Shown in pieces: positions 7,345-57,488 of a stretch of 64,000 bases of DNA (within the stretch, counting starts at the first letter, position 1; the number at the start of each line of letters is the position of its first letter). Both the position numbers and the translations under genes were made by a program. Source of the stretch: Nostoc sp. DedSLP01 (lineage in GTDB: Bacteria > Cyanobacteriota > Cyanobacteriia > Cyanobacteriales > Nostocaceae); assembly GCA_034530875.2 (NCBI GenBank), contig JAVRCJ020000011.1, positions 1-64,000 on the forward strand, given 5' to 3'. Below the pieces are notes generated by a model. It saw nothing but the letters and a program-made list of their open reading frames with translations. It was not told where the DNA came from and did not search any database.

Positions 7345-8313
7345 TTAGCTAACAATTACCCAATACATCCCATCTGGTGCAATTAATCCAAAAGCAGGTT
7401 CGCCAAATTCATTAGGGACAATGGGTGTAACGTTAGTAGCGTTGCTGGCGATGACGCGTTGATGAAAAGCTGCAATATCATCAACTTGATAAGTAAAAAG
7501 GCTTATGCCTAACGAGCCTGGTTGAGCGTATTCGCGGCGATCGCTAGTAGGATAAAGTGGGCTATAAACTTGAAAAACTCCGACATTAGTCTTGGGTGAA
7601 GCAAAAACCGAAAGATAAAATTCTTGCCCTTCCTCAAGCATCATAATCTGGCGAGTAGAGGGATTTTTATAGCCGGAGAGTTTGGGATTATTCTCTGATG
7701 GCACAAGTCCAAAAACGTCTGTGTAAAAAGAGACGAGGCTATGGTCAGAAGTGATGAAACTAGAGTGAGTACCCTCACTTACTAATAGCCCACAATTGCG
7801 ATTAATAGTACCGTAACCAGGGCGATCGTAGTTATATCGCTGGAAAAATGCTTGTCGTGTCTCTTTGCCAATCACAAACATTTCTCGCACACCGACAAAG
7901 CGGTTATATAATCCCGTTCCTACATTACCGACATACTCGATACCGCGTACTGGTTCGGTATAAATCCAGTCTCCACCGTTGGCTTTGTCGTCAGCAAAAG
8001 CATCTGCTATGGCATAAATATCTTGAGTCAGAGAAGCAAACCAGCGACTACCCTCTACGACTGGCAAGGTATCGCCTAAGCCTTCATTGCGGGGTTGTTT
8101 CCACCACATTACCCGCACTAGTCCATGTTCTGATGAGTTGCCATTTTGCAGTCGCAGTGATACTAAATCTGATTTATGACCGTAGAGTAATTCTGCTTGT
8201 TCTGCGGAAAATTCTCCTTTCTTGACCTCTTGATAGCCGAACTCATTCCAATATTTCAGAGTAGTTTCGATATTATTTGAGCCGACACAATTTTCAAAAA
8301 TACCGCTAATCAT
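7345..8313 (-). CDS. VOC/glyoxalase-superfamily protein (tandem domains)
   Basis: C-terminal YQVDDIAAFHQRV..NEFGEPAFGLIAPDG signature; N-terminal VGSNNIETTLKYWNEFG repeat. Confidence 0.75.
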   Translation of the reverse strand: MISGIFENCVGSNNIETTLKYWNEFGYQEVKKGEFSAEQAELLYGHKSDLVSLRLQNGNSSEHGLVRVMWWKQPRNEGLGDTLPVVEGSRWFASLTQDIYAIADAFADDKANGGDWIYTEPVRGIEYVGNVGTGLYNRFVGVREMFVIGKETRQAFFQRYNYDRPGYGTINRNCGLLVSEGTHSSFITSDHSLVSFYTDVFGLVPSENNPKLSGYKNPSTRQIMMLEEGQEFYLSVFASPKTNVGVFQVYSPLYPTSDRREYAQPGSLGISLFTYQVDDIAAFHQRVIASNATNVTPIVPNEFGEPAFGLIAPDGMYWVIVS

Positions 8314-37186: not shown

Positions 37187-37585
37187 TTAATACGATTTTC
37201 CATCGCTACCAAAATATTCCCGATAGCCGCAAATTTTGTCTTTGCGCACATCAAAGGAAACTGCTACTCTATTTTTGTATGGCTGTCCGAATAAAAGTCC
37301 TTCATCGCGAAATTCAAAGACAACCGTTGTTTCATTGCTAGTAACACGGTCTAGACCAGTCAGCTTTAAACCAGGACTAAAGGATTCAGAAACATACTCG
37401 AAAAATTCTTTAGCTCGGTCTTTTCCCACATTTAAACCGTGGAATTTTCCCATAGGAAACCAAAAGGTAAAATCTTCTGTAAACATATCTAACAATGCTT
37501 CCCATTCCCCTGTTGCCGTACCGTGGATCAGATTCTCAAATGCTTGCCGACCAACTTTTAAAGTATTTTCTGAATCTTGTGTCAT
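37187..37585 (-). CDS. NTF2/SnoaL-like protein
   Basis: MFTEDFTFWFP, GKDRAKEFF, VVFE, FDVRKDKICGYREYF; start MTQD at 37585. Confidence 0.85.
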   Translation of the reverse strand: MTQDSENTLKVGRQAFENLIHGTATGEWEALLDMFTEDFTFWFPMGKFHGLNVGKDRAKEFFEYVSESFSPGLKLTGLDRVTSNETTVVFEFRDEGLLFGQPYKNRVAVSFDVRKDKICGYREYFGSDGKSY

Positions 37586-37623
37586 TCTCACCCTCGACTG
37601 AATATAAAGTAATATCGTATTAC

Positions 37624-38631
37624 TTAAAACCTCACCACTACTTTGCCACAATTGTGACCGCCCAAGAGATATTCTACAGCGTTGGGAATTGATTCTATGC
37701 CTTGAAATTGTGCTGGGTCAACGGCGACTTTGATTTTGTCAGTGTAGAACAAGTTTAAGAGGCGATCGCGTGCTTCTGCTATATATTCTTTGTAATGAGG
37801 CATGAGAAAGGCTCTCACAGAAGCTGCTTTCCAAAATAGCTGGTGATAAAGGCGTGGCTGTGTAATTTCTTCTATATTTTTTGCGTATTCGGAGATAAAA
37901 CCAACGACTATTAAGCGTCCCCGTACTGCTAAGTTTTCAACGCAGGTATCAAAAACTTGTTTGCCTACACAGTCGAAAATTAAATTAATACCATTAGGGT
38001 ATTCTTGCTTGAGGACGCGATCGAGGTTTTCTGTGCGATAGTTGATAATGCGATCGCACCCTAATTCTCTTAGTAAATTTGCCTTCGCCTCAGAACTGCA
38101 AGTACCAATAACATTATTACCAGCTAGCTTTGCCAATTGCACCGCAATATGACCAGTTCCCCCTGCTGCTGCTGTTACTAAAACCACTTCATTACTTTTC
38201 ATTTCTCCTACTTGTTCCAATGCAACCAAAGCTGATACACCTGTAGGTATTAGTGTTAATACCTCTGGCGTTGCTTCACGCACCTTTACTGCTAAGTTTG
38301 CATTGATAACCTGATATTCTCGATAACCCCCACCACGCGCTGTAGTTATGACAGCATCACCTACTTGAAAATCTTTAATATTTTCACCTATGGCAACAAC
38401 TATTCCCACAGCTTCTACACCTAAATCAAAGGGGGGAATTAAGTTAACATAAGGAACTTCTCCACGACAAAGTAATGTGTCAAAGCCACCGTTCACGCCA
38501 GCAAATTTGTTTTGAATTAGAAGTTCATTAGTAGCAGGTGTGGGAAGAGGAATTTCGACAATTTCAACGGCAGATTTAAAATTTGGGTTAAGTTGCTTAG
38601 CTATTAACTTTTTGTAAGTTTTTACGTTCAT
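37624..38631 (-). CDS. NADPH-dependent MDR oxidoreductase (quinone/alkenal reductase type)
   Basis: GVEAVG, VTAAAGGTGHIAVQLAK, GKVVV; lacks catalytic-zinc Cys/His. Confidence 0.88.
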   Translation of the reverse strand: MNVKTYKKLIAKQLNPNFKSAVEIVEIPLPTPATNELLIQNKFAGVNGGFDTLLCRGEVPYVNLIPPFDLGVEAVGIVVAIGENIKDFQVGDAVITTARGGGYREYQVINANLAVKVREATPEVLTLIPTGVSALVALEQVGEMKSNEVVLVTAAAGGTGHIAVQLAKLAGNNVIGTCSSEAKANLLRELGCDRIINYRTENLDRVLKQEYPNGINLIFDCVGKQVFDTCVENLAVRGRLIVVGFISEYAKNIEEITQPRLYHQLFWKAASVRAFLMPHYKEYIAEARDRLLNLFYTDKIKVAVDPAQFQGIESIPNAVEYLLGGHNCGKVVVRF

Positions 38632-38772
38632 TCTAAATCTTAAGTTTACCTAACTCATCAATTATTATTTTTAATGTCAGTTGAGATATGGGGATAATAA
38701 AAGGAAAGAGCAAGAACTTCAGCCCTTACTACAATCCTTCGTTATCAAGCCTTCTAACAGTTAAAATTAAGC

Positions 38773-39594
38773 TTATAAAGCTTTATCCCACTCTAATTGA
38801 TGAGCTAAACCATATTTGATAAAATCTTCTACTTCAGCTTTATCGCTTTTACCAAAAACACCTAAGCTGTAAGGGTTGTCTTGCATACGTCGTGTAACTT
38901 CCTCTTTCTCAAATTGCCTCACTTCTTCTCTAGGGCGATCTGGTTTAAAAAAGTCTATAACCAAAACGGTTCTATCATAATTAGTATAATTATGCGGACA
39001 GTGGGGATAGCTATGATCTAAAACCATAATTTCTCCTTCATGCCAATAAAGTTGTTCGTGGCATATTTTCATAGCTATATCTCCCTCTGGCACAATTAAT
39101 CCTAAATAGCCCCGATTTGTATGAAGGTTATAGTTCACGTGTAGCTTGATATCTAAGCCTGGATGAAATGTCCCAAAATACGCATTTCTGATGATTTCAT
39201 CATGATGAAAGTTAACTTTTTCTATTATCTTAGCCAAATTTGGGAAATATTTTTCTCTTAATGTAAGTGCTTTTTGGGATGCATCATCTGACCCAATATC
39301 GGGATATTGTATTTGATGAACTTGAATATATTTATCAATAAAAAGACCTTGAAATAAAATACCAAAAGCACTGTATTTAGAATTGCCCTTTGTTTTAATT
39401 GTTTTATTTTTAGGGCCGAGAACATCGTAAGTAAGTTTTAATTCTTCAGCAGATGCATTTTTTATAAAATTTGTAAATTCATCTCTAATTACTTGCCAGT
39501 TTTCTTGGAAGCTTTTGAGAAAAGGAAATTGCTCTGGGTCTAGATGATATTCGTTAAAACTTTCCATTGTCTTTTCTCCAGAAAATGATTTCAT
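38773..39594 (-). CDS. Aspartyl/asparaginyl beta-hydroxylase-domain 2OG-Fe(II) oxygenase
   Basis: ENWQVIRDE, PGLDIKLH, LGLIVP, WHEGEIMVLDHSYPH, RTVLVID. Confidence 0.85.
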   Translation of the reverse strand: MKSFSGEKTMESFNEYHLDPEQFPFLKSFQENWQVIRDEFTNFIKNASAEELKLTYDVLGPKNKTIKTKGNSKYSAFGILFQGLFIDKYIQVHQIQYPDIGSDDASQKALTLREKYFPNLAKIIEKVNFHHDEIIRNAYFGTFHPGLDIKLHVNYNLHTNRGYLGLIVPEGDIAMKICHEQLYWHEGEIMVLDHSYPHCPHNYTNYDRTVLVIDFFKPDRPREEVRQFEKEEVTRRMQDNPYSLGVFGKSDKAEVEDFIKYGLAHQLEWDKAL

Positions 39595-39672
39595 AAAAAA
39601 CTATTACATGATGATGGTATTTGCTCTGCGTCCCGGTAGGATGTGTAAATTCCTAACTAAACTCATTTTAGT

Positions 39673-41154
39673 GTGAGGTCTACTGTGTCTGAAACTTCCC
39701 TATTAGATAGAGTTATCAAAAATGTGCGGGTAGTTCGTCCCCATGATGATGCGATAGCACTACTTGATTTAGGAATTAAGGATGGGAAATTTGCTCAGAT
39801 TGCTTCTAATATTAGCCCAGACACAGCTAAAGAGGTATTTGATGGCAAAAATTTACTGGCATTTCCTGGGGTTGTGGATGCCCACATGCACATCGGTATT
39901 TATCAGCCACTCGACAAAGATGCTGTAACAGAAAGTAAAGCCGCAGCAATGGGAGGTGTGACTACTAGTTTAAATTACATCCGCACAGGGCAGTATTATC
40001 TCAATAAAGGTGGTTCTTATCAAGATTTTTTTCCAGAGGTATTGGCATTATCCGCAGGTAATTTTTTTGTCGATTACAGCTACCACGTTGCGCCTATAGC
40101 AAAGCAGCATATTGACGAAATACCTTTATTGTTTGAGGAACACGGTGTATCTTCGTTTAAAATATTCATGTTTTATGGTGGCTATGGATTGCATGGTTTG
40201 TCAGACCGGCAAAACCTTTTTTTGATGATTAATAAAGAGGAAAGATACGATTTTGCCCATTTTGAATTTATTATGCGCGGTCTAACTCGCTTGATGGAAA
40301 AATATCCCCAAGCGCGAGATACTATCAGCTTGAGTTTGCATTGCGAAGTTGCAGAAATTCTTAACGCTTATACCAAAATAGTCGAAAATGATTCTAGCCT
40401 TAGCGGACTGCACGCTTACAGTGCAGCGCGTCCTCCCCATTCCGAAGGTTTAGCAATTTGCATTGCTTCTTATTTAGCGCATGAAACTAACTGTGTAAAT
40501 ATTAATTTGTTACACCTAAGTTCGCGTAAGGCAATGGAAGCAGCTTTGACTATGCAAACTGCTTTTCCTCATATCAATTTTCGCCGCGAAGTTACTGTCG
40601 GACATTTACTATTAGATGTCGATACTCCTAATACAATTTGGGCAAAAGTAAATCCGCCTATCCGTCCTCGTGCCGATGTTGAATACTTATGGCAAGCAGT
40701 ACTTAATAATCAAGTAGATTGGATAGTTAGCGACCATGCTTGTTGTTCTGCTGAACAAAAAAGAAGTGCTAAAGACCCGAATAATATTTGGTTAGCAAAA
40801 TCTGGTTTTGGCGGTACAGAATATCTACTTTCTGGTGTAATTAGTGAAGGTAGCAAGCGGGGAATGTCTTACAACCATATTGCTAAGTTGCTATCTTGGA
40901 ACCCATCGCGGCGTTTTGGTTTGTTAGAAAAAGGTGATATTGCTATTGGCTATGATGCTGATTTGGTATTAGTAGACCCCAACGAAACCTTTGTGGTACG
41001 TGCTGCTGAGTCGGAGTCACAACAAGGCTATACACCATTTGAAGGTGTAGAGTTAACCGGAAGGGTAAAGAGTACTTTTTTACGTGGAAATCTTATTTAT
41101 AATAACGGAGAGGTTTTAGGTTCGCCTACTGGACGTTATTTAAAAAGAAATTAG
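39673..41154 (+). CDS. Cyclic amidohydrolase (allantoinase/dihydropyrimidinase-like)
   Basis: PGVVDAHMH, GGVTT, FKIFM, LHCE, HLSS, KVNPPIR, SDH. Confidence 0.88.
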   Translation: MRSTVSETSLLDRVIKNVRVVRPHDDAIALLDLGIKDGKFAQIASNISPDTAKEVFDGKNLLAFPGVVDAHMHIGIYQPLDKDAVTESKAAAMGGVTTSLNYIRTGQYYLNKGGSYQDFFPEVLALSAGNFFVDYSYHVAPIAKQHIDEIPLLFEEHGVSSFKIFMFYGGYGLHGLSDRQNLFLMINKEERYDFAHFEFIMRGLTRLMEKYPQARDTISLSLHCEVAEILNAYTKIVENDSSLSGLHAYSAARPPHSEGLAICIASYLAHETNCVNINLLHLSSRKAMEAALTMQTAFPHINFRREVTVGHLLLDVDTPNTIWAKVNPPIRPRADVEYLWQAVLNNQVDWIVSDHACCSAEQKRSAKDPNNIWLAKSGFGGTEYLLSGVISEGSKRGMSYNHIAKLLSWNPSRRFGLLEKGDIAIGYDADLVLVDPNETFVVRAAESESQQGYTPFEGVELTGRVKSTFLRGNLIYNNGEVLGSPTGRYLKRN

Positions 41155-42397: not shown

Positions 42398-42742
42398 TCA
42401 GCTTGCAGGACGCACAACCCTAATCAACTTACTTTGTAGGGATTCTTGAGATGCTACGATCGCTTCATTAATTCGAGTTGCCATACGAATTCTATCGCTG
42501 TCGTTGGTGCAGACAATAATACCAAGATGCTCACAACTGGAACGATGTAAGCGAATAAAATCTTGGCGATTGAGGGTCACAACTGCACGATTGTCTTTCA
42601 TAGCAAAAGCTAATACATCCTCATCGGGGACACCCAAGTTATCATTGCCAGCTTCCTGCACCGTCAAAACATCATGTCCCATTTGCCGAAGTAGTTCGCT
42701 AACTAACCGTGGAAACTGCTCATCAGCATACAGACGTGCCAT
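42398..42742 (-). CDS. DUF5615 PIN-like toxin
   Basis: LYADEQFP, GHDV, DEDVLAFA, TLNRQDF. Confidence 0.88.
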   Translation of the reverse strand: MARLYADEQFPRLVSELLRQMGHDVLTVQEAGNDNLGVPDEDVLAFAMKDNRAVVTLNRQDFIRLHRSSCEHLGIIVCTNDSDRIRMATRINEAIVASQESLQSKLIRVVRPAS

Positions 42743-42745
42743 CGG

Positions 42746-43075
42746 CTAGCCAACCTCGTTATTACCCCGAATTGCGGCCGCAATTTCTTCAGGATAGGCA
42801 TCGGCATAAGCCCAAGCATTGACGAGATCGGCAGCAGTGATATGAGGATAGTCCTGCAAAAGTTGGGCTTCAGGGATGCCTAATTGTTGTGCTTCAACTA
42901 AAAGCCAAACGGCAATTCTGGTTCCGGCAATACATGCTTCTCCACCGCATACACCAGGGGTTTTAGTGATTCCCTTGCCGCTAGTGCTAAGATTTTTGGT
43001 TAGGCTTTGAATAATCTCTGCTTTGTCAGCAAGCGATAAATTGAGAAGTTGACGTTCGAGTTCTTGAAGAGTCAT
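42746..43075 (-). CDS. DUF433 antitoxin
   Basis: TPGVCGGEACIAGTRIAVW..LLQDYP. Confidence 0.9.
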   Translation of the reverse strand: MTLQELERQLLNLSLADKAEIIQSLTKNLSTSGKGITKTPGVCGGEACIAGTRIAVWLLVEAQQLGIPEAQLLQDYPHITAADLVNAWAYADAYPEEIAAAIRGNNEVG

Positions 43076-43528: not shown

Positions 43529-44488
43529 ATGCCATTTACCATTGATTCCGCTCGTGGTATCTTTCCCAACACATTAGCGGCTGATGTTGTACCTGCAACA
43601 ATAGCCAGGTTCAATCAGCTCAGTGCTGAAGATCAACTTGCACTAATTTGGTTTGCTTACCTGGAAATGGGCAAGACAATCACTATTGCGGCTCCTGGAG
43701 CTGCAAGTATGCAATTTGCTGAGCCGACATTGAATCAAATTCGGCAAATGTCTTTTACCGAGCAATCACAAGTGATGTGCGATCTGGCAAACCGAGCAGA
43801 TACACCAATTACCCGCACATACGCCGTTTGGTCTGTAAACATCAAACTAGGTTTCTGGTATCAGTTAGGGAAATGGATGGATCAAGGGATTGTTGCACCA
43901 ATTCCCCCAGGGTATAAGCTTTCTGCTAATGCTGGTGCTGTTCTGCAAGCAATTAGAGAACTTGATGCAGGTCAGCAAATTACAGTCTTGCGTAATTCTG
44001 TAGTTGATATGGGATTTGACCCAAATAAATTGGATGGTAAAAAAAGAGTTTCTGAGCCTGTTGTTGTTCCTAAAGAGATATCACAGCGAACTCAAGTCAC
44101 TATTGAAGGCGTTGATAACCCAATAGTGTTAAGTTATATGAATAACCTTAACGCTAACGATTTTGATGCGCTGATTGAGTTATTCACATCTGATGGTGCC
44201 CTGCAACCTCCCTTCCAAAGACCGATAGTTGGTAAAGATGCTGTCCTACGGTTTTTTAGAGAAGATTGTCAAAACCTCAAGTTAATTCCAGAAAGAGGAG
44301 TAGTTGAACCTGCTGAAGACGGTTTTACTCAAATTAAAGTCACCGGCAAAGTCCAAACTCCCTGGTTTGGTGCTAGCGTGGGTATGAATATGGCTTGGAG
44401 ATTCTTGGTAACTCCTGAGAATAAAATTTTCTTTGTAGCTATTGATTTGCTGGCATCTCCCAAAGAACTATTAAACTTAGTTCGTTAG
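43529..44488 (+). CDS. ocp: Orange carotenoid protein (OCP1 type)
   Basis: MPFTIDSARGIFPNTLAADVVP, LIWFAYLEMG, QPPF, VQTPWFG, IDLLASPKELLN; followed by FRP. Confidence 0.97.
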   Translation: MPFTIDSARGIFPNTLAADVVPATIARFNQLSAEDQLALIWFAYLEMGKTITIAAPGAASMQFAEPTLNQIRQMSFTEQSQVMCDLANRADTPITRTYAVWSVNIKLGFWYQLGKWMDQGIVAPIPPGYKLSANAGAVLQAIRELDAGQQITVLRNSVVDMGFDPNKLDGKKRVSEPVVVPKEISQRTQVTIEGVDNPIVLSYMNNLNANDFDALIELFTSDGALQPPFQRPIVGKDAVLRFFREDCQNLKLIPERGVVEPAEDGFTQIKVTGKVQTPWFGASVGMNMAWRFLVTPENKIFFVAIDLLASPKELLNLVR

Positions 44489-47636: not shown

Positions 47637-48257
47637 CTACAAACTCCATGCAGCCTGAAAAAACTCATACTCACACAACATCGCATAACGATAAGTTGAA
47701 TGCACAACAGTATTATTCGTGGCATAATTCTCAACTAAACTTTCTAACTGCTGTGTCAACGGCTGAAAATCCGCACTACTGTAAGTCCGAATCCAGCCTC
47801 CATACTGATGATTCGGAATGCCATTTCTAGCTAACTCTTCTCCCAAAAAAGCATACAAACGCATACAAGGGGACATCGCCGCGGCCGTTAAACCGACATC
47901 TTGTCCCCAAGCAGTTGCTAACAAAAAATCAGTATAGCGACGCGTAGCAGCTCCAAGTTCCACAGAATGCAAATTAACTCCCCACTGGGAAGCATAGCCA
48001 CTATGGAATTCCAGTTCTGCTAAAACTCCACTAGCTAGGTGATGAAATCTAGTGAAACCCACCCAATCTGGTGCTTTAGCTGCGGCAATACTATACGCAC
48101 GGGCAAAAGCTTCTAAGAAAAAAGCATCTTGCCCTACATAGTAAGCAAACTTCGCGGCCTCAAGAGTACCATCACCAATGCCTCGAACAAAAGGATGCTC
48201 TAAACACGCTTTGGCTAAATCTTGATTCGTCTTCCATAATTCATTAGGTAAAGTCAT
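47637..48257 (-). CDS. tenA: TenA/THI-4 family thiamine salvage protein
   Basis: HPFV, YVGQDAFFL, PCMRLY, WIRTY, EYEFF. Confidence 0.9.
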   Translation of the reverse strand: MTLPNELWKTNQDLAKACLEHPFVRGIGDGTLEAAKFAYYVGQDAFFLEAFARAYSIAAAKAPDWVGFTRFHHLASGVLAELEFHSGYASQWGVNLHSVELGAATRRYTDFLLATAWGQDVGLTAAAMSPCMRLYAFLGEELARNGIPNHQYGGWIRTYSSADFQPLTQQLESLVENYATNNTVVHSTYRYAMLCEYEFFQAAWSL

Positions 48258-49805: not shown

Positions 49806-50582
49806 ATGACTCAGCAACCAACCAATCTAGACAATAAAACTGTATTTGAGCAGTTGTGGAATCTTACAAAAGAACTCCGGCAAAAATTAGAGTCTCGTTT
49901 TGAGTTAAACCCAGATCCTTCTGTAGAAGATTTACAAGAATACAGCAGTCTTGACGGTAATATCAAAGGTTCTCTTAGCGCATTTTCGGGAAAAGAAATT
50001 GATTGGCTAGTGCATTCGTGGTTAGGAAACCCCGAAAAATCAAACTTTAGCACCATGCGCCTCACCACTTGGTTAGCGCCGCATATCGAAGTTCCCCATT
50101 TAGCATTTGAGTTTGGCACGCTTCCCAATGCAGATATTTTATTTTATATAGATTACGTTGCTCGCACTGACCTTTTAACCGATTTAGCATATCTCGATCG
50201 CTATTACGAACCAGTCAACCAAACATTTTTAAAGTTGCAAGACGAGACGCGCCTCAAGGCATTTACTAGCAAAAGCGTTTACGTTCGCCTATTTCAATCC
50301 CCCGTTAGTCTTTGCTACACTGGCGCACCTACTTCTGATACCCTCGAAATCACTCGCACAGTTGCACTCGAAACACTAGAACGCTGGCTAACTTGGGCAG
50401 ACGCAGCCGAACCTGTATCAGAAGATGCACGGAATACTTTAGCAACTCGCGATTTATTACTACGCCGAACCGCCGCCGAACGCGACCCTGGTAATAAATT
50501 TGCCGCCCAACTTTTTGGTACTCAATTAACAGATAAACTAGTACGATCGCTTTGGGGTGGCGATCGTAAAATTAGTCATTAG
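49806..50582 (+). CDS. Red chlorophyll catabolite reductase-like ferredoxin-dependent bilin reductase
   Basis: DWLVHSW, PHLAFEF, DYVARTDL, YLDRYY, YVRLFQSP, ERDP..LFG align by eye to the RCCR/FDBR fold. Confidence 0.8.
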   Translation: MTQQPTNLDNKTVFEQLWNLTKELRQKLESRFELNPDPSVEDLQEYSSLDGNIKGSLSAFSGKEIDWLVHSWLGNPEKSNFSTMRLTTWLAPHIEVPHLAFEFGTLPNADILFYIDYVARTDLLTDLAYLDRYYEPVNQTFLKLQDETRLKAFTSKSVYVRLFQSPVSLCYTGAPTSDTLEITRTVALETLERWLTWADAAEPVSEDARNTLATRDLLLRRTAAERDPGNKFAAQLFGTQLTDKLVRSLWGGDRKISH

Positions 50583-50670
50583 TCAAACAATTTTGGATTT
50601 TAGATTTTAGATTTTAGATTTTTTCTTGAATCCAAAATCCAAAATCCAAAATCTAAAATTTTTCTGCCCT

Positions 50671-51705
50671 ATGCCCAATAATCCAGAATCCTACCGTGCC
50701 TTAGCGCTGCAAGTTACCTGTCATGCAGTCAACCAAGCAAGCGATCGCCAGGAAGCGCGATCGCTGATGCTAAACTCGATCCATCGCCTAGCGCCACAAA
50801 TTGCAGCTAGTATTGCTTTCATTGGCTTTGATTGTCGTTTAATTGTGCTGCCGGAATATTTTCTTACAGGTTTTCCAATGGGAGATACTCTCGCAGGATG
50901 GGCAGAAAAAGCTTGTATAGAAATGGCTGGTGCTGAGTATGAAGCACTGGGAAAAATTGCTCAAAAGCATAAAATCTTTTTGGCTGGTAACGCCTACGAA
51001 GTCGATCCCAACTTTCCCGGATTATACTTTCAAACCTGCTTTATAATTGACCCTTCTGGCTCGATTATCTTACGCTATCGGCGGTTAAATTCTTTATTTG
51101 CTCCTACTCCCCATGACGTTTGGGATAAATATCTCGATTGCTATGGTTTAGAAGGAGTCTTCCCCGTAGCCAAAACTGAGATTGGTAATTTAGCAGCTAT
51201 AGCATCAGAAGAAATTTTGTATCCCGAAGTAGCGCGGTGTCTAGCCATGCGAGGAGCAGAGATTTTTGTGCATTCCACTTCCGAAGTGTATAACAAAAAC
51301 CTTACACCTAAAGATGCTGCCAAAATTACTCGCGCTGTAGAAAATATGGCATATATCGTATCAGCTAATACCGCAGGCATCGCTAATATTGCTATCCCCA
51401 TTGCTTCCGCTGATGGTGGTTCAAAAATCATCGATTATCGCGGAATAGTCATAGCTGAAACAGGCGCAGGCGAAAGTATGGCAGCATTCGCTGAGATTGA
51501 TTTAGCAGCATTACGTCGCGATCGCCGCAGACCAGGGTTAAATAATTTACTCTCACGCCAACGATTTGAACTCTACGCCGAAAGTTATCGGATGTCACAC
51601 TTTTACCCCGCTAATACTATGCTGGAAAAAGAAGTAGACCGCAAACACTTCTTACAAACCCAGCAAGCCACCATTGAACGGTTAGCACAACTAGGAATAA
51701 TTTGA
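50671..51705 (+). CDS. Nitrilase-superfamily carbon-nitrogen hydrolase with non-canonical triad
   Basis: VLPEY, FQTCFIIDPSG, YRR, YPEVARCLAMRGAE, RAVEN..SAN, GGSKIID; ATG 50671 because the upstream extension is STRR-derived. Confidence 0.88.
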   Translation: MPNNPESYRALALQVTCHAVNQASDRQEARSLMLNSIHRLAPQIAASIAFIGFDCRLIVLPEYFLTGFPMGDTLAGWAEKACIEMAGAEYEALGKIAQKHKIFLAGNAYEVDPNFPGLYFQTCFIIDPSGSIILRYRRLNSLFAPTPHDVWDKYLDCYGLEGVFPVAKTEIGNLAAIASEEILYPEVARCLAMRGAEIFVHSTSEVYNKNLTPKDAAKITRAVENMAYIVSANTAGIANIAIPIASADGGSKIIDYRGIVIAETGAGESMAAFAEIDLAALRRDRRRPGLNNLLSRQRFELYAESYRMSHFYPANTMLEKEVDRKHFLQTQQATIERLAQLGII

Positions 51706-51818
51706 ATTGGGTATTGGGCATTGGGCATTGGGCATGGGGCATTGGCAGTCATAACTTAACTAATGACTAATGACTAATAACTAATGACAAATGACTAATG
51801 ACAAATGACTAATAACAA

Positions 51819-53246
51819 ATGACTAATACAAAACCAATAGAAGTCCGTAACCCTCGAACTGGCAAATATGACTATGTAATTATACCGCCGCCTCCCAGGT
51901 TGCTGGTACAGCAATGTAGGCGTATGCGTCGGGCGCAGGTTCATTGGCAAAAAATAGGTATAGAGGGGAGAATCGAAGCTTTACAACAGTGGAAGGAAGC
52001 GATACTATCTACACGCGATCGCTTAACGGAAGCTTTGGTAAATGATACCGGCAGATTATCAACTTCAGTATTAGAAATCGATTCTTTTCTTTCTAGCATC
52101 GACCGTTGGTGTAGGTTAGCGCCAGAATTGCTGCAAGAATCTGCAAAAAACACAGCAATTCCCTTCATTGCTTTGCAACAAGCATCAGTACCTTATCCTC
52201 TAGTAGGTGTCATTAGCCCGTGGAACTTTCCACTGTTACTGTCTACCATTGATACCATTCCCGCATTGTTAGCGGGTTGTGCTGCGATTGTCAAACCGAG
52301 CGAAATTGCTCCCCGCTTCGTAGCACCGTTAGTTACAGCACTCAACGCCGTACCCAAATTGCGCGATGTCTTAACTTTTGTTGAAGGAGCAGGGGAAACC
52401 GGAGCTAATTTAATTGAAAATGTAGATTTGATATGCTTTACAGGTAGCGTTGCCACAGGAAGAAAAGTAGCGCAAGCCGCTGCTAAACAATTTATTCCAG
52501 CTTTTTTGGAATTAGGTGGAAAAGATCCGGCGATCGTTTTAGAATCAGCCAACTTAGACTTAGCAACCTCAGCTATATTATGGGGTTCCGTCGTCAATAC
52601 CGGACAGTCATGCTTATCAATTGAGCGAATTTACGTTGCCGAATCTATATTTGAAAAATTTTACCATCTACTAATAGCCAAAGCTTCTCGCCTTGAATTA
52701 GCTTATCCCACCCTTGAAAGTGGAGAAATTGGCCCCATCATTGCCGAAAGACAAGCAGCACTTATTAGCGACCATCTCTTAGACGCACTGGAAAAAGGAG
52801 CAGTAATTCATTGCGGCGGCGTCATTGAAGACTTAGGCGGAGGTTGGTGGTGTCGTCCCACAGTGCTTACTCAGGTCAATCATTCCATGAAAGTCATGAC
52901 CGAAGAAACTTTCGGTCCTCTGATGCCAATTGTGCCTTTTAGTACAGTTGAGGAAGCAGTATCTTTAGCAAACGACTCCATTTATGGACTTAGTGCGGCG
53001 GTATTTGCTGAGTCAGAAGCAGAAGCCTTAGAAGTTGCCCAGCATATAGAAGCAGGTGCTATCAGTATCAACGATGCCGGACTCACCGCCATCATGCACG
53101 AAGGAGAGAAAAACGCTTTCAAATTCTCTGGACTGGGAGGTTCGCGTATGGGTGCAGCAGCAATAAAGCGGTTCACGCGGAAAAAAGCTTTTTTGATTAA
53201 AACCAATCCGATTAATGACCCTTGGTGGTTTGGGAATGGGGAGTGA
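51819..53246 (+). CDS. NAD(P)-dependent aldehyde dehydrogenase
   Basis: ISPWNFP, KPSE, FTGS, LELGGKDP, GQSC, EETFGP. Confidence 0.95.
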   Translation: MTNTKPIEVRNPRTGKYDYVIIPPPPRLLVQQCRRMRRAQVHWQKIGIEGRIEALQQWKEAILSTRDRLTEALVNDTGRLSTSVLEIDSFLSSIDRWCRLAPELLQESAKNTAIPFIALQQASVPYPLVGVISPWNFPLLLSTIDTIPALLAGCAAIVKPSEIAPRFVAPLVTALNAVPKLRDVLTFVEGAGETGANLIENVDLICFTGSVATGRKVAQAAAKQFIPAFLELGGKDPAIVLESANLDLATSAILWGSVVNTGQSCLSIERIYVAESIFEKFYHLLIAKASRLELAYPTLESGEIGPIIAERQAALISDHLLDALEKGAVIHCGGVIEDLGGGWWCRPTVLTQVNHSMKVMTEETFGPLMPIVPFSTVEEAVSLANDSIYGLSAAVFAESEAEALEVAQHIEAGAISINDAGLTAIMHEGEKNAFKFSGLGGSRMGAAAIKRFTRKKAFLIKTNPINDPWWFGNGE

Positions 53247-53326
53247 TACCAATTCAAAATTCAAAATTCAAAATTCACATAATTGCCATTATTGTGACAT
53301 TTTGCACAAGTATAAATCGTATCAAA

Positions 53327-53923
53327 CTAGTTAACGACATCAAAAATTTGTTCGGCTGTTATTTGTAGTTGAATACCTAAGCGTTCCAGTTCTGGAGATT
53401 CGATCTGCGTGTTTCCGGTAAACCTGCCAACTTCGCGATAACTGCCTTCTGACAATTGTAGAATAGCGATCGCCAACTCCTGTGGGTCAATCAGCCAGTA
53501 TTCAACAATACCGCGTGCTGCGTATTGTTTCCGCTTCCGCACATAGTCTCTGTCCCGATTAATCTCACCTGGAGACACCACTTCCATCACCAAATGTGGT
53601 GGAAGAACATCAAAAGTAATAGTCAACCGCTTCCGGGTTAGCTCTAAGTGTTCTTCCCGAAGCAGCACCAAATCCGGGTAGCGATTTGCAGGATCGCCAG
53701 CCTCAAGGACTGGTACTTGAAGTTCGCAAGCATGAGGCTGTACCCGTCGAAAAGGCATTCCCGCATTAACTAATAGCAAGAACAGGTAATTTGCAAGGGA
53801 CGTATTTGGTTCTGACTCTGGCGGCAATTCTACTAAGCTCCCATCAACAAGTTCATAACGCTTTTCCGTCCCATCATCTATTTCTAGGTATTGCTCAAAC
53901 GTCAATCGTTGGGCTGTAGTCAT
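53327..53923 (-). CDS. Uma2 family endonuclease-fold protein
   Basis: YELVDG, RYPDL, VMEVVSPG, RDY..K..QYAARGIVEYWLIDP. Confidence 0.92.
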   Translation of the reverse strand: MTTAQRLTFEQYLEIDDGTEKRYELVDGSLVELPPESEPNTSLANYLFLLLVNAGMPFRRVQPHACELQVPVLEAGDPANRYPDLVLLREEHLELTRKRLTITFDVLPPHLVMEVVSPGEINRDRDYVRKRKQYAARGIVEYWLIDPQELAIAILQLSEGSYREVGRFTGNTQIESPELERLGIQLQITAEQIFDVVN

Positions 53924-54023
53924 AATACTTCTGCCTGACTTTTATGATTTTGGCATTTATTGTTTGGAAATGGGGAATAGGGCATTGGGCATGGGGAATA
54001 TAATTTTTTGCTGAGATTGCTCT

Positions 54024-54111
54024 GCAATTGAGTTGCATCGACTTGCAATTGAGTTGCATCGACTTGCAATTGAGTTGCATCGACTCGCAATTGAGTTGCA
54101 TTGACTCGCAA
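54024..54111. repeat. 21-bp tandem repeat, four units plus a partial
   Basis: GCAATTGAGTTGCAT(C/T)GACT(T/C) x4, no spacers. Confidence 0.95.
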
Positions 54112-54222
54112 AAATTAACTTATCTTATTTCCTAATCCCCATTCCCCAGTCCCCAGTCCCCAATCCCCAATAATATGCGAACATAATTAAGTTGTAGCCG
54201 ATCGCCTGCACTGAGGTTTAAA

Positions 54223-55503
54223 GTGGATACCATTGAAATCCCTGCTCTGAATCGCCCAATAGACGCCACGGTAGAGATTCCTGGTTCTAAAAGTATTACT
54301 AATCGGGCATTACTTGTCGCAGCCTTGGCGCAAGGTGACTCGATTTTAGAAAATGCTTTATTTAGTGAAGACAGCAATTATTTTGCCAAATGTTTAGAGC
54401 AATTAGGCATCCCTATAACCCTAAATTCTGACCAAGCTCAAATTCAAATAGCAGGAAAGGGAGGCGAAATTCCCGCCAAGCAGGCAGATTTATTTGTGGG
54501 TTTAGCAGGTACAGCAGCAAGGTTTATTTCGGCGCTGGTAGCACTGGGTAATGGCGAATATCGCCTAGATGGCGTTCCCAGAATGCGAGAACGACCGATG
54601 GGCGACTTGCTAAAGGTGCTGCAAAGTAGCGGAGTAACCGTTAACTTCCAGGGAAATCCTGATTTTATGCCCTACACCATCTACGGTGGGCAGTTTTCTG
54701 GGGGACATTTTCGTTTAAAAGCTAACCAAACAAGTCAGCAACTTTCGGCATTATTAATGATTGCCCCTTACGCTCAACAAGACACAATTATTGAAGTTGA
54801 GGGGACGTTGGTTTCTCAATCTTACGTAAAAATGACTTGTAAATTGATGGCAGATTTTGGCGTAGAAGTCAATCAAATTGCCGAAAATCAATTCCAAATT
54901 CAAGCAGGTCAGCCTTACCAGCCTCGACATTACACAATAGAACCAGATGCGTCGAATGCTTCTTACTTTTTTGCCGCCGCCGCCGTCACTGGTGGACGAG
55001 TGCGGGTTAAACATTTGACCAAACAATCTTGTCAAGGCGATATTCTTTGGCTCAACGTTTTAGAACAGATGGGTTGCCAGGTACGTGAAAGTGATGATTA
55101 CACGGAAGTTACAGGGCCAGAGCAGTTGCAGGGTATCGATATTGACATGAATGATATCTCAGATTTGGTGCAAACTTTAGGAGCGATCGCTCCCTTTGCC
55201 ACCTCACCTGTTACCATTCGCAATGTCGAACATATTCGCTACAAAGAAACCGACCGCATTCACGCCGTAGTTACTGAATTGCGCCGCTTGGGAGTTCAAG
55301 TTGAGGAATTTCCCGATAGACTAAAGATTGAACCCGGCCCCATTACCCCAGCAGCAATTGAAACCTATCACGATCATCGCATGGCAATGGCATTTGCTGT
55401 TACGGGCTTAAAAGTTCCAGGGATTGTGATTAAAGATCCAGGTTGTACGGCAAAAACTTTTCCAGATTACTTTACCCGATTTTTCAAAATGTTAGAACAA
55501 TAA
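54223..55503 (+). CDS. aroA: EPSP synthase
   Basis: PGSKSITNRAL, AGTAARF, RMRERP, SQQLSALL, KETDRI, DHRMAM, KTFP. Confidence 0.97.
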   Translation: MDTIEIPALNRPIDATVEIPGSKSITNRALLVAALAQGDSILENALFSEDSNYFAKCLEQLGIPITLNSDQAQIQIAGKGGEIPAKQADLFVGLAGTAARFISALVALGNGEYRLDGVPRMRERPMGDLLKVLQSSGVTVNFQGNPDFMPYTIYGGQFSGGHFRLKANQTSQQLSALLMIAPYAQQDTIIEVEGTLVSQSYVKMTCKLMADFGVEVNQIAENQFQIQAGQPYQPRHYTIEPDASNASYFFAAAAVTGGRVRVKHLTKQSCQGDILWLNVLEQMGCQVRESDDYTEVTGPEQLQGIDIDMNDISDLVQTLGAIAPFATSPVTIRNVEHIRYKETDRIHAVVTELRRLGVQVEEFPDRLKIEPGPITPAAIETYHDHRMAMAFAVTGLKVPGIVIKDPGCTAKTFPDYFTRFFKMLEQ

Positions 55504-55516
55504 AAGGTGAATAGCC

Positions 55517-55963
55517 ATGTCTAATATCAAAGAAGAAATGCCCGTGCTTGCCCGTCATGAAGGAGATTGGGTAGGCACTTATACATTAGTTGATACAACC
55601 GGAAAAATCATTGACAGCTACGAATCTCACTTAACTTGTCAATTTCCAGAAAACGGCCCTCATCCTTACTACCAAATCAACCGCTACAAATGGGCTGACG
55701 GGAAAAAAGAAGAATACGAATTTCCCGGAATTTATAAAGATAATAAACTTTGGTTTGACACTGAGCGCATTGATGGCAAAGCCTGGGAAGCTGACGAGTC
55801 AATTGTGATTTTGTGGTTTGCTTATAAAACAAACCCAGACATGAGCTTATATGAAATGATTTATATTAGTCCTGATAATAACAACCGTGCCCGTACTTGG
55901 CATTGGTTTAAAAACGGTCAAATATTTCAACGCACCCTCATTCAAGAACAACGGCTAAAATAA
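55517..55963 (+). CDS. DUF3598-like calycin/beta-barrel protein
   Basis: HEGDWVGTY N-terminal GxW strand, YYQINRY, RARTW..G..QRTLIQEQR; 13 bp after aroA. Confidence 0.7.
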   Translation: MSNIKEEMPVLARHEGDWVGTYTLVDTTGKIIDSYESHLTCQFPENGPHPYYQINRYKWADGKKEEYEFPGIYKDNKLWFDTERIDGKAWEADESIVILWFAYKTNPDMSLYEMIYISPDNNNRARTWHWFKNGQIFQRTLIQEQRLK

Positions 55964-56099: not shown

Positions 56100-57488
56100 A
56101 TGGCAAAATGTGACAAAATAAACTTTTCTACTCCTAGCGGTTTCCCAGAATTTCTGCCTAGCGAAAAGCGCCTAGAATTATATTTATTAGATACCATCCG
56201 TAGAGTTTTTGAAAGCTATGGATTTACCCCCATTGAAACCCCAGCAGTAGAACGTTTAGAAGTCCTACAAGCTAAAGGAAACCAAGGCGACAATATTATT
56301 TATGGAATTGACCCCATTTTGCCACCAAATCGCCAAGCCGAAAAAGATAAATCTGGCGAAACTGGTTCGGAAGCAAGGGCATTAAAGTTTGACCAAACAG
56401 TGCCATTAGCAGCTTACATTGCCCGTCACCTTAATGAGTTAACTTTTCCATTTGCCCGCTACCAAATGGATGTAGTCTTTCGCGGAGAACGGGCAAAAGA
56501 TGGACGTTTTCGCCAGTTTCGCCAATGCGATATTGATGTAGTTGCGCGTCGCGAACTGAGCTTACTTTATGATGCTCAAATGCCTGCAATTATTAGTGAA
56601 ATATTTGAAGCAATTAATATCGGTGATTTTCTCATCCGCATCAATAACCGCAAAGTTCTGACAGGTTTCTTTAAATCAGTAGGAATTGCTGAAAACCAAA
56701 TTAAATCTTGCATCAGTGTTGTTGATACCCTAGAAAAAGTTGGACAAAATAAAGTTAAACAAGATTTAGAAAAAGAGGGAATTTCCGCAGAACAAGCTGA
56801 AAAAATAATTGAATTTATTAAAATAGATGGCTCAGTTGATGAAGTATTAGATAAACTCAAACACCTGGCAAACAATCTTCCAGAAACCGAACAATTAAGC
56901 TTGGGCGTTACCGAACTAGAAACGATAATTACAGGCGTGCGTAATCTTGGCGTTGCCGAAAATCGTTTCTGTATTGATTTATCTATTGCTCGTGGACTTG
57001 ATTACTATACTGGTACAGTTTACGAAACAACTTTATTAGGACATGAAGCCTTAGGTAGTATTTGTTCTGGCGGCAGATATGAAGAATTAGTCGGAGTATT
57101 TTTAGGCGAAAAAATGCCTGGTGTTGGCATTTCTATTGGCTTAACTCGCTTAATTAGTAGATTGTTGAAAGCAGGTATTTTGACTACCTTAGCTGCTACC
57201 CCCGCACAAGTGATGGTGGTGAATATGCAAGATGATTTAATGCCGACTTATTTAAAAGTTTCTCAACAACTGCGTCAAGCGGGAATTAATGTTGTCACTA
57301 ACTTTGATAAACGTCCTTTAGGGAAACAATTTCAGTTAGCAGACAAACAAGGAATTCAATTTTGCGTCATTATTGGTTCTGAGGAAGCAGCAGCAAATAA
57401 ATCTTCTCTTAAAGATTTGAAAACAGGCGAACAAGTAGAAGTTTTATTGGAAAATTTGGCAGAGGAGGTTAAACGCAGACTGGCTTAA
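56100..57488 (+). CDS. hisS: Histidyl-tRNA synthetase
   Basis: FDQTVPLA, FRGER..GRFRQFRQCDID, ARGLDYYTG, GGRY. Confidence 0.97.
   Translation: MAKCDKINFSTPSGFPEFLPSEKRLELYLLDTIRRVFESYGFTPIETPAVERLEVLQAKGNQGDNIIYGIDPILPPNRQAEKDKSGETGSEARALKFDQTVPLAAYIARHLNELTFPFARYQMDVVFRGERAKDGRFRQFRQCDIDVVARRELSLLYDAQMPAIISEIFEAINIGDFLIRINNRKVLTGFFKSVGIAENQIKSCISVVDTLEKVGQNKVKQDLEKEGISAEQAEKIIEFIKIDGSVDEVLDKLKHLANNLPETEQLSLGVTELETIITGVRNLGVAENRFCIDLSIARGLDYYTGTVYETTLLGHEALGSICSGGRYEELVGVFLGEKMPGVGISIGLTRLISRLLKAGILTTLAATPAQVMVVNMQDDLMPTYLKVSQQLRQAGINVVTNFDKRPLGKQFQLADKQGIQFCVIIGSEEAAANKSSLKDLKTGEQVEVLLENLAEEVKRRLA

Follow-up and report, generated by a model that had tools for sequence, protein, structure and literature searches.

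The first 64,000 nucleotides of contig JAVRCJ020000011.1 of Nostoc sp. DedSLP01 (hereafter the window, placed on contig C11 of the source genome, G000) carry a set of genes, among them one for a protein that resembles RCCR, the reductase of red chlorophyll catabolite, and one for an unusual nitrilase-fold hydrolase, which could plausibly belong to a bacterial module, conserved though patchy in its spread, that degrades linear tetrapyrroles or their pyrrole fragments; this tentative reading is drawn from comparison of sequences. The module occurs in six phyla. Its core consists of the nitrilase-fold hydrolase, an aldehyde dehydrogenase (ALDH), a single-domain barrel protein and a cyclic amidohydrolase, and the RCCR-like gene is an add-on to the module and not part of that core.

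The core genes and their distribution

The six open reading frames between 49806 and 55963 were recovered at the positions, and with the families, given for them in the original prediction (open reading frame list, Pfam and NCBIfam). The closest homologues with names come from Nostoc. Three of them belong to the core, all on the forward strand: the nitrilase-superfamily hydrolase (50671-51705; PF00795, 1e-30), the ALDH (51819-53246; PF00171, 2e-102) and the DUF3598_N barrel (55517-55963; 2.7e-9). The fourth core gene, for a hydantoinase/allantoinase-like cyclic amidohydrolase in which the metal-ligand motifs are present, lies at 39673-41154, also on the forward strand.

Two sets of loci were scored with one set of hidden Markov models (HMMs). 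The metagenome set comprised the best 80 of 109 confirmed nitrilase loci (65-95% identical, many on short contigs); the genome set comprised the best 80 of at least 575 confirmed nitrilase loci, ranked on the Nonomuraea orthologue, from 42 Actinomycetota, 37 other non-cyanobacteria and 1 cyanobacterium. Of the 48 metagenome loci that extend 5 kb or more downstream, 43 had ALDH and 40 the barrel within 10 kb of the nitrilase gene, and therefore the clustering is not due to chance. Over the whole metagenome set the counts per 80 loci were 57 for ALDH, 46 for the barrel, 19 for the amidohydrolase, 17 each for an MDR reductase and an alpha/beta hydrolase, 16 for an Asp/Asn beta-hydroxylase (AspH)-like protein, 15 for the RCCR-like protein, 12 each for DUF4437 and RidA, 9 for SnoaL, 8 for BKACE and 6 each for VOC and the PEP-mutase family. 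The corresponding counts in the genome set were 44 for ALDH, 41 for the barrel, 22 for CoA-transferase III, 21 for DUF1838, 16 for PrpD, 11 for CitE, 9 for a TonB receptor and 7 each for the amidohydrolase and VOC. Genes for the handling of branched acids (CoA-transferase, HMGL, CitE, PrpD, LeuC) were present in 19/37 and 9/42 heterotroph loci, as alkyl-substituted pyrrole rings would require. The expectation that these genes recur together, with VOC and amidohydrolase partners and in non-phototrophs too, is thus borne out across phyla.

One draw of 151 cyanobacterial genomes gave a similar picture of the core. The nitrilase gene was found in 14 and the barrel gene in 17, including all 14 nitrilase-positive genomes; the amidohydrolase was found in 12, each of them nitrilase-positive. 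It is because of these co-occurrences, together with the locus counts, that the four genes are taken as the core. The RCCR-like gene was present in eight of the 151, of which five were nitrilase-positive.

Since the nitrilase and RCCR-like genes are confined to 14 and 8 of the 151 genomes respectively, the module is not a general route of phycobilisome recycling, and the role in phycobilisome breakdown that had been suggested for it falls away in that general form. A more restricted proposal, in which the module recycles the cell's own phycobilisome bilins under nitrogen starvation, is very unlikely. Phycobilisome breakdown is widespread in cyanobacteria, yet the nitrilase gene was not found in 137/151 of the genomes searched; the exact sequence GTA-N8-TAC, which we take to be the NtcA-type site, was not found upstream of the RCCR-like gene; and the module is common in heterotrophs with uptake systems. 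On the other side, the substrate would be abundant in the cell, and phycocyanobilin cleavage products on phycobiliproteins are reported in passages of PMC6722726.

Active-site residues and folds of the core proteins

The hydrolase belongs to the CN_hydrolase fold family (PF00795, 107 bits; amidases in the PDB at 1e-13 to 1e-17) and falls under all NCBIfam cut-offs. When it is aligned to Nit/amidase structures, Glu62, Arg138 and Ser179 occupy the positions of the Glu-Lys-Cys triad, so that the triad of the classical nitrilase/amidase is absent. The same Glu, Arg and Ser are found in 198/198 aligned rows and in the orthologues of all 80 genome-set loci, which come from several phyla; therefore this is a conserved variant and not a product of decay. 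AmiE, AmiF and Nit1/Nit2 (PDB 2uxy, 2dyu, 1ems) share the fold family and the position of the catalytic Glu, but they have Lys and Cys where the window protein and all examined orthologues have Arg and Ser, and judged by these residues the enzyme is no classical nitrilase. No account of a Glu-Arg-Ser triad was found in the literature searched, whose coverage mostly excluded subscription journals. The start of the gene was placed at ATG 50671, which agrees with the starts of homologues; the TTG at 50626 given by the open reading frame list lies within repeats and was rejected. Sister nitrilase-fold groups had Glu-Lys-Ala in 3/3 plasmid records (L110, L111, L112), that is, no nucleophile at the usual place in the triad. 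Near the Glu-Arg-Ser gene of some loci there is a second, more divergent C-N-hydrolase-fold gene (L157:7630-8994, L159:6841-8076, L180:3696-5066), and these too are without the Lys and Cys in the alignment.

The ALDH has intact catalytic motifs (N136, E231, C265) and is under every NCBIfam cut-off shown. The amidohydrolase has a D-hydantoinase as its best PDB match (1e-40). The barrel is a single domain of 148 amino acids and 10 strands in a model built from a 56-row alignment (pLDDT 96). In comparisons made with this model the best fold match was BFA1 (Z 17.9, root mean square deviation (rmsd) 2.4, 136 residues aligned), followed by the DUF3598 protein Npun_R4044 (Z 16.2), nitrobindin-like proteins (Z 14.4-14.9), the OlmO spirocyclase (Z 14.2) and the bilin lyase CPES (Z 12.7, rmsd 3.1, 139 aligned), all at identities of 7-15%. 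The 10-stranded barrel is common to DUF3598/BFA1, nitrobindin and the S-type lyases CpcS/CPES. Thus the predicted calycin-type barrel stands, while its best folds are BFA1, DUF3598 and the nitrobindins and not a bilin lyase. A profile of the barrel searched against PDB sequences returned Npun_R4044 alone (E 0.02), with no sequence match to CpcS. Histidines occur only at positions 14, 38, 49 and 129, none of them on the last strand, which is where the haem-ligating His of nitrobindin sits. E113/R124/R126 form a pattern that resembles E136/R146/R148 of GtCPES, as given in passages of bioRxiv 10.1101/2020.03.31.018853.

Some of these folds could point away from catabolism. SnoaL, the barrel (through its OlmO match), O-methyltransferase and dioxygenase folds are also found in biosynthetic clusters, and the genes might build or tailor a small nitrogen-containing metabolite, with the Ser hydrolase in the role of an acyltransferase. 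This is scarcely credible: the importers and GntR regulators, like the CoA-transferases and C-C lyases, suggest catabolism, and no scaffold-forming synthase was seen among the recurring families annotated.

RCCR-like and CpcT-like genes as clues to the substrate

The RCCR-like protein of the window (49806-50582, forward strand; 258 amino acids, "RCCR-A" type), which is assigned a bilin-reductase fold and is accessory to the module, matched PF06405 (2e-21) with 76.8 bits against a cut-off of 24.9, over model positions 4-250 of 253; PF05996, the model for ferredoxin-dependent bilin reductases (FDBR), remained below its cut-off (16 bits vs 31). Residues 24-248 align with Arabidopsis RCCR (PDB 3aga, E 4e-9), and in the pairwise alignment E102 corresponds to Glu154 and D227 to Asp291, so the acidic pair is kept as originally proposed. 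The Arabidopsis numbering was fixed through the F/V difference between its two PDB rows; residues 154, 218 and 291 have catalytic roles in that enzyme, of which no mention was found in the literature searched. Among 120 homologues listed of 260, D227 was present in 120/120 and E102 in 99/120; the 21 without E102 all fell in one clade of 24 rows in a quick tree (IQ-TREE). Pfam family, length, fold assignment and the Glu154/Asp291 equivalents are thus shared with Arabidopsis RCCR/ACD2 (PDB 3aga, 2zxk) of the PAO/phyllobilin pathway. The two proteins are nevertheless distant. Gln164 of the window protein stands at the position of the stereo-determining Phe218, and the window gene is linked to C-N hydrolases, for which no use in plants is known. 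Searches of the atlas yielded family labels and nothing further, and there was no match for the protein among the plasmids searched. RCCR is an outgroup to the bilin reductases according to passages of PMC10151467 and PMC13193486, and by the latter the characterised enzymes of its fold (FDBR, RCCR, CPO) are all tetrapyrrole-binding; this was counted in favour of a tetrapyrrole substrate.

Few RCCR sequences from outside the cyanobacteria were sampled, and they came by way of genomes with the nitrilase and of three taxon draws. In 5/7 RCCR-positive heterotroph genomes a VanA-type Rieske oxygenase gene shares an operon with the RCCR-like gene, and in the remaining two the latter is on short contigs; the same operon was found in 3/5 further RCCR-positive genomes. 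Most of these operons also carry a second RCCR paralogue (RCCR-B), which keeps acidic residues at both positions, and a hydrolase that is weakly chlorophyllase-like (Pfam E 0.004-0.04); a double-barrel protein, SDR, maleate-isomerase-like protein, FAD monooxygenase, HMG-CoA-lyase-like protein and CoA-transferase are encoded there as well. At L200, L201, L202, L204, L206 and L235-L237 the conserved operon runs RCCR-A, chlorophyllase-like hydrolase, Rieske, RCCR-B, and continues with the double-barrel protein, SDR, the maleate-isomerase-like gene and a two-domain nitrilase; in the latter the nucleophile position is occupied by Cys in the three rows, of four, that aligned. The heterotroph operon matches the plant CLH/PAO/RCCR set, a set which has been linked with the loss of chlorophyll in Shewanella acanthi (bioRxiv 10.64898/2026.03.19.712979). 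RCCR-B was found in 0/151 of the drawn cyanobacterial genomes. At a further cyanobacterial locus (L211, G033:C256) Rieske, RCCR-B and RCCR-A stand in tandem and no Glu-Arg-Ser nitrilase was found; L212 (G020:C1:4063000-4082999) has two tandem RCCR-like genes with an opposite-strand NmrA gene between them, one with the Glu154 equivalent and one without.

Bacterial RCCR homologues are already in print. Their presence in Nostoc and Anabaena was noted in 2009, with differential expression in hormogonia cited, in passages of PMC2716323. The 2026 preprint cited above describes an "SH-RCCR-type" chlorophyll degradation set in a region of about 11 kb in Shewanella acanthi and names RCCR-type genomes that include Nostocaceae and Streptosporangiaceae. 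The upper steps of that set (hydrolase, Rieske oxygenase, RCCR) are like those of the heterotroph operons, but neither a nitrilase, an amidase or an aldehyde dehydrogenase nor an operon or a gene cluster is mentioned in its main text; its experiments reach pheophorbide only, and RCCR itself was not tested there. What may be new here is the downstream module, of which no account was found in the literature searched (subscription journals being mostly outside the coverage, and the 2026 preprint covered by its main text).

Both sets of genes meet in G222, a metagenome-assembled genome of the Anaerolineaceae, where orthologues of seven window genes lie within about 50 kb. Identities to the window proteins are 50% for RCCR, 60% for the nitrilase, 58% for ALDH, 48% for the barrel, 70% for the amidohydrolase, 35% for VOC and 44% for SnoaL. 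The Rieske/RCCR operon of this genome ends with the amidohydrolase orthologue, and about 30 kb separate it from a nitrilase-ALDH-barrel-VOC-SnoaL-DUF1838 group with a LeuC/D-like pair, in which the VOC gene adjoins the nitrilase. The cluster also has HMGL and CoA-transferase genes, and the LeuC/D-like genes include a LeuD/DmdB-family match. A draw of Anaerolineae counts in favour of the link as well: the RCCR-like gene was in 5/201 genomes and the nitrilase in 2/201, both RCCR-positive, one of the two being the centre genome.

A second bilin-associated fold recurs beside the nitrilase in non-phototrophs. CpcT/CpeT-family genes with signal-like N-termini were found within 10 kb of it in 5/37 non-actinomycete, non-cyanobacterial loci (three above the Pfam cut-off, one weak and one by a custom HMM only), and a distant family in six further loci; the CpcT-like genes, of at least two lineages, come from Acidobacteriota and an alphaproteobacterium. 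In G744 and G782 the order is amidohydrolase, GntR, DUF4437, AMP-binding, CpeT, oxoprolinase, nitrilase, barrel. A separate draw of Acidobacteriota had PF06206 in 21/301 genomes; leaving out the centre genome, the nitrilase was present in 4/20 CpeT-positive genomes, within about 6 kb in three of the four, and in 0/20 CpeT-negative ones. The CpeT tree was a quick tree, and 3/20 regions gave no CpeT row. Together with the G222 cluster, these neighbours are the clues to linear tetrapyrroles as substrate.

Several observations weigh against a tetrapyrrole substrate. The RCCR-like gene was within 10 kb of the nitrilase in 0/80 genome-set loci, and PF06405 was present in only 7/50 heterotroph genomes that have the nitrilase (from 50 of the 80 loci). 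The two genes are unlinked in the actinomycete order of G189 (Fisher p 0.39; RCCR-like 8/151, nitrilase 11/151, and without the centre genome 1 shared of 7 and 10) and within the family of the window (p 0.31); such tests across genomes overstate, kin not being independent. Among close relatives the nitrilase is deleted beside an intact RCCR-ALDH pair in four loci, and RCCR is reduced or missing with the nitrilase intact in G014 and G016. The heterotroph RCCR-A proteins are without the Glu154 equivalent, and their operons have a two-domain nitrilase of their own. G000 is without a second RCCR paralogue, a CLH-like gene and an orthologue of the operon's Rieske protein (best 32%), so the linked Rieske, hydrolase and second RCCR of the bacterial PAO/RCCR operon are not found there. 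No nitrilase orthologue was present in 16/20 CpeT-positive Acidobacteriota, the barrel is nearer to BFA1 and the nitrobindins than to the bilin lyases, and genes for NMT1/THI5-type ABC binding proteins flank the Nonomuraea locus. The suggestion of tetrapyrrole catabolism has gained from the Rieske/chlorophyllase-like operons and the CpcT neighbours, and the RCCR-like gene, found in 15/80 and 0/80 loci, has lost its place in the core. The four deletion loci are L009, L011, L017 and L018 (G004, G005, G024, G012), with short remnants in three; at L026 RCCR has shrunk to a 28-residue remnant beside an intact nitrilase.

It is somewhat unlikely that the core instead degrades another N-heterocycle (a substituted pyridine, pyrimidine, purine or B-vitamin breakdown product), the RCCR-like and CpcT-like genes being occasional neighbours that serve a different substrate. 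The core without an RCCR-like gene in 43/50 heterotroph genomes, the NMT1/THI5-type proteins flanking the Nonomuraea locus, the hydantoinases/allantoinases nearest in structure to the amidohydrolase, and the maleate-isomerase-like, cyclase, isochorismatase and hydantoinase/oxoprolinase genes that recur nearby would all fit such a substrate; genes of the latter kinds also serve pyridine pathways. However, this would not account for two bilin-associated folds having been recruited independently, the RCCR-like one in cyanobacteria and Anaerolineae and the CpcT-like one in Acidobacteriota and an alphaproteobacterium, and the tenA gene that lies near the cluster in the window was present in 0/160 loci. 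A further alternative, which is decidedly unlikely, concerns the RCCR-like gene alone: it may be the leftover of a transferred upper operon with no pathway in common with the nitrilase, or a lone detoxifier of phototoxic tetrapyrroles. The partners it has in heterotroph operons are missing in G000; RCCR-B is absent from the 151 drawn genomes, yet present in G033; 3/8 RCCR-positive cyanobacterial genomes are without the nitrilase and 9/14 nitrilase-positive ones without the RCCR-like gene; and detoxification in plant symbionts is speculated upon in passages of PMC2716323. Against this alternative, the gene is intact, with 76-88% identity over most of the genus; the nitrilase follows it directly in 14 of the 25 other full-length RCCR loci, and both modules are joined in G222 too. 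In G000 the gene is present in one copy.

Gene arrangement in the window and a possible pathway

The RCCR-like gene, the nitrilase and ALDH are separated by gaps of 88 bp (50583-50670) and 113 bp (51706-51818), both filled with 7-base tandem repeats. Next come a Uma2-family gene on the reverse strand (53327-53923; PF05685), an insertion outside the module, and aroA for EPSP synthase on the forward strand (54223-55503; TIGR01356 above cut-off), a housekeeping passenger; the barrel gene starts 13 bp past the end of aroA. In relatives the usual order is ALDH-barrel-hisS, so it is Uma2 and aroA that are the insertions separating ALDH from the barrel. The interval 49806-55963 had been regarded as one operon with aroA as a member; because the opposite-strand Uma2 gene splits it, it is probably not a single operon, and aroA, found in 2/160 nitrilase loci and present as the only copy in G000, is therefore outside the unit. 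The gene tenA (47637-48257), at 0/160 loci, was likewise rejected as a member. hisS (56100-57488, forward strand; Pfam) is a chromosomal neighbour kept in relatives (25/80 metagenome loci, 0/80 genome-set loci) and no pathway gene. A promoter/terminator scan of the window gave chance levels (22 vs 18.6; 7 vs 8.8), and the RNA runs, with shares of 0.07-0.12, demonstrated neither transcription nor an operon: in X1 and X2 there are separate contigs, from a relative, with about 94% similarity across the nitrilase and ALDH, and X5 and X7 cover repeats only.

A second block of the module lies at 37187-41154, where the amidohydrolase is accompanied, on the reverse strand, by the AspH-like dioxygenase-fold gene (38773-39594; PF05118), a member in the metagenome set, an MDR-family NAD(P)H reductase of quinone/alkenal reductase-like type (37624-38631) and a SnoaL-like protein (37187-37651). 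A two-domain VOC/glyoxalase-fold gene (7345-8313, reverse strand; weak PF00903) is a dispersed member. Elsewhere in G000 there are dispersed DUF1838, DUF4437 and PEP-mutase/isocitrate-lyase-family genes (C27:12465-13277, C25:12989-13915, C23:106842-107762) whose orthologues are cluster members in relatives, two extra LeuC/D-like, homoaconitase-type genes (C11:210877-212631, C13:196018-197766), and two tandem PaO-domain Rieske genes (C1:42486-45425) unlinked to the module; a PaO-domain Rieske gene adjoined the cluster in 2-3/80 loci, too few to use. The window also holds an orange carotenoid protein gene (43529-44488), a two-gene pair (42398-43075) that presumably resembles a DUF433/DUF5615 toxin-antitoxin-type module, and, upstream of aroA, a 21-base repeat of 4.2 copies, 97% alike (54023-54111).

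If the substrate is a linear tetrapyrrole, a route can be outlined of which we infer every reaction and substrate. The RCCR-like protein would use ferredoxin to reduce a double bond at a bridge in the bilin; VOC, cupin (DUF4437) or AspH-like metalloenzymes might then cut the bilin to formyl-pyrroles and maleimide/lactam rings, with the barrel holding the cleavage products. The ALDH would oxidise the formyl groups, and the MDR reductase and hydantoinase-like enzyme would turn the imide ring, by reduction and opening, into a half-amide, from which the Glu-Arg-Ser hydrolase (predicted nucleophile: Ser179) would free NH3. The alkyl-branched dicarboxylic acids could pass to LeuCD/PrpD, CoA-transferase, and HMG-CoA-lyase/CitE or PEP-mutase-family lyases. 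Heterotrophs may import pigment through TonB receptors and exported CpcT-like binders; G000 would have the lower module and one RCCR-like gene without the upper operon of heterotrophs. The order of the lower steps is taken from cyclic-imide and nicotinate catabolism, with its imidase, half-amidase, maleate isomerase and dimethylmalate dehydratase/lyase. The chemical logic, by which a ring amide becomes a half-amide and then a dicarboxylate that undergoes C-C cleavage, is common to both, but the enzyme set is different and the module is joined to bilin-associated folds.

About 1 billion tonnes of chlorophyll are made yearly, as cited in bioRxiv 10.64898/2026.03.19.712979, and no bacterial enzymes that take opened tetrapyrroles past the first reduction are described in the literature covered. 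It is possible, though doubtful, that the genes form the lower half of the first complete bacterial pathway by which bilins and phyllobilins are mineralised, with ammonia and branched acids as products. Such a pathway would extend over six phyla or more, would be supplied in heterotrophs by exported CpcT-like bilin scavengers, and would depend on a branch of the nitrilase superfamily whose nucleophile is serine. If true, this would provide named, testable enzymes and candidate organisms for the steps past the first tetrapyrrole reduction. Whatever its substrate, a Glu-Arg-Ser nitrilase-fold enzyme kept across phyla would appear to add a new catalytic variant to a superfamily whose defining triad is Glu-Lys-Cys.

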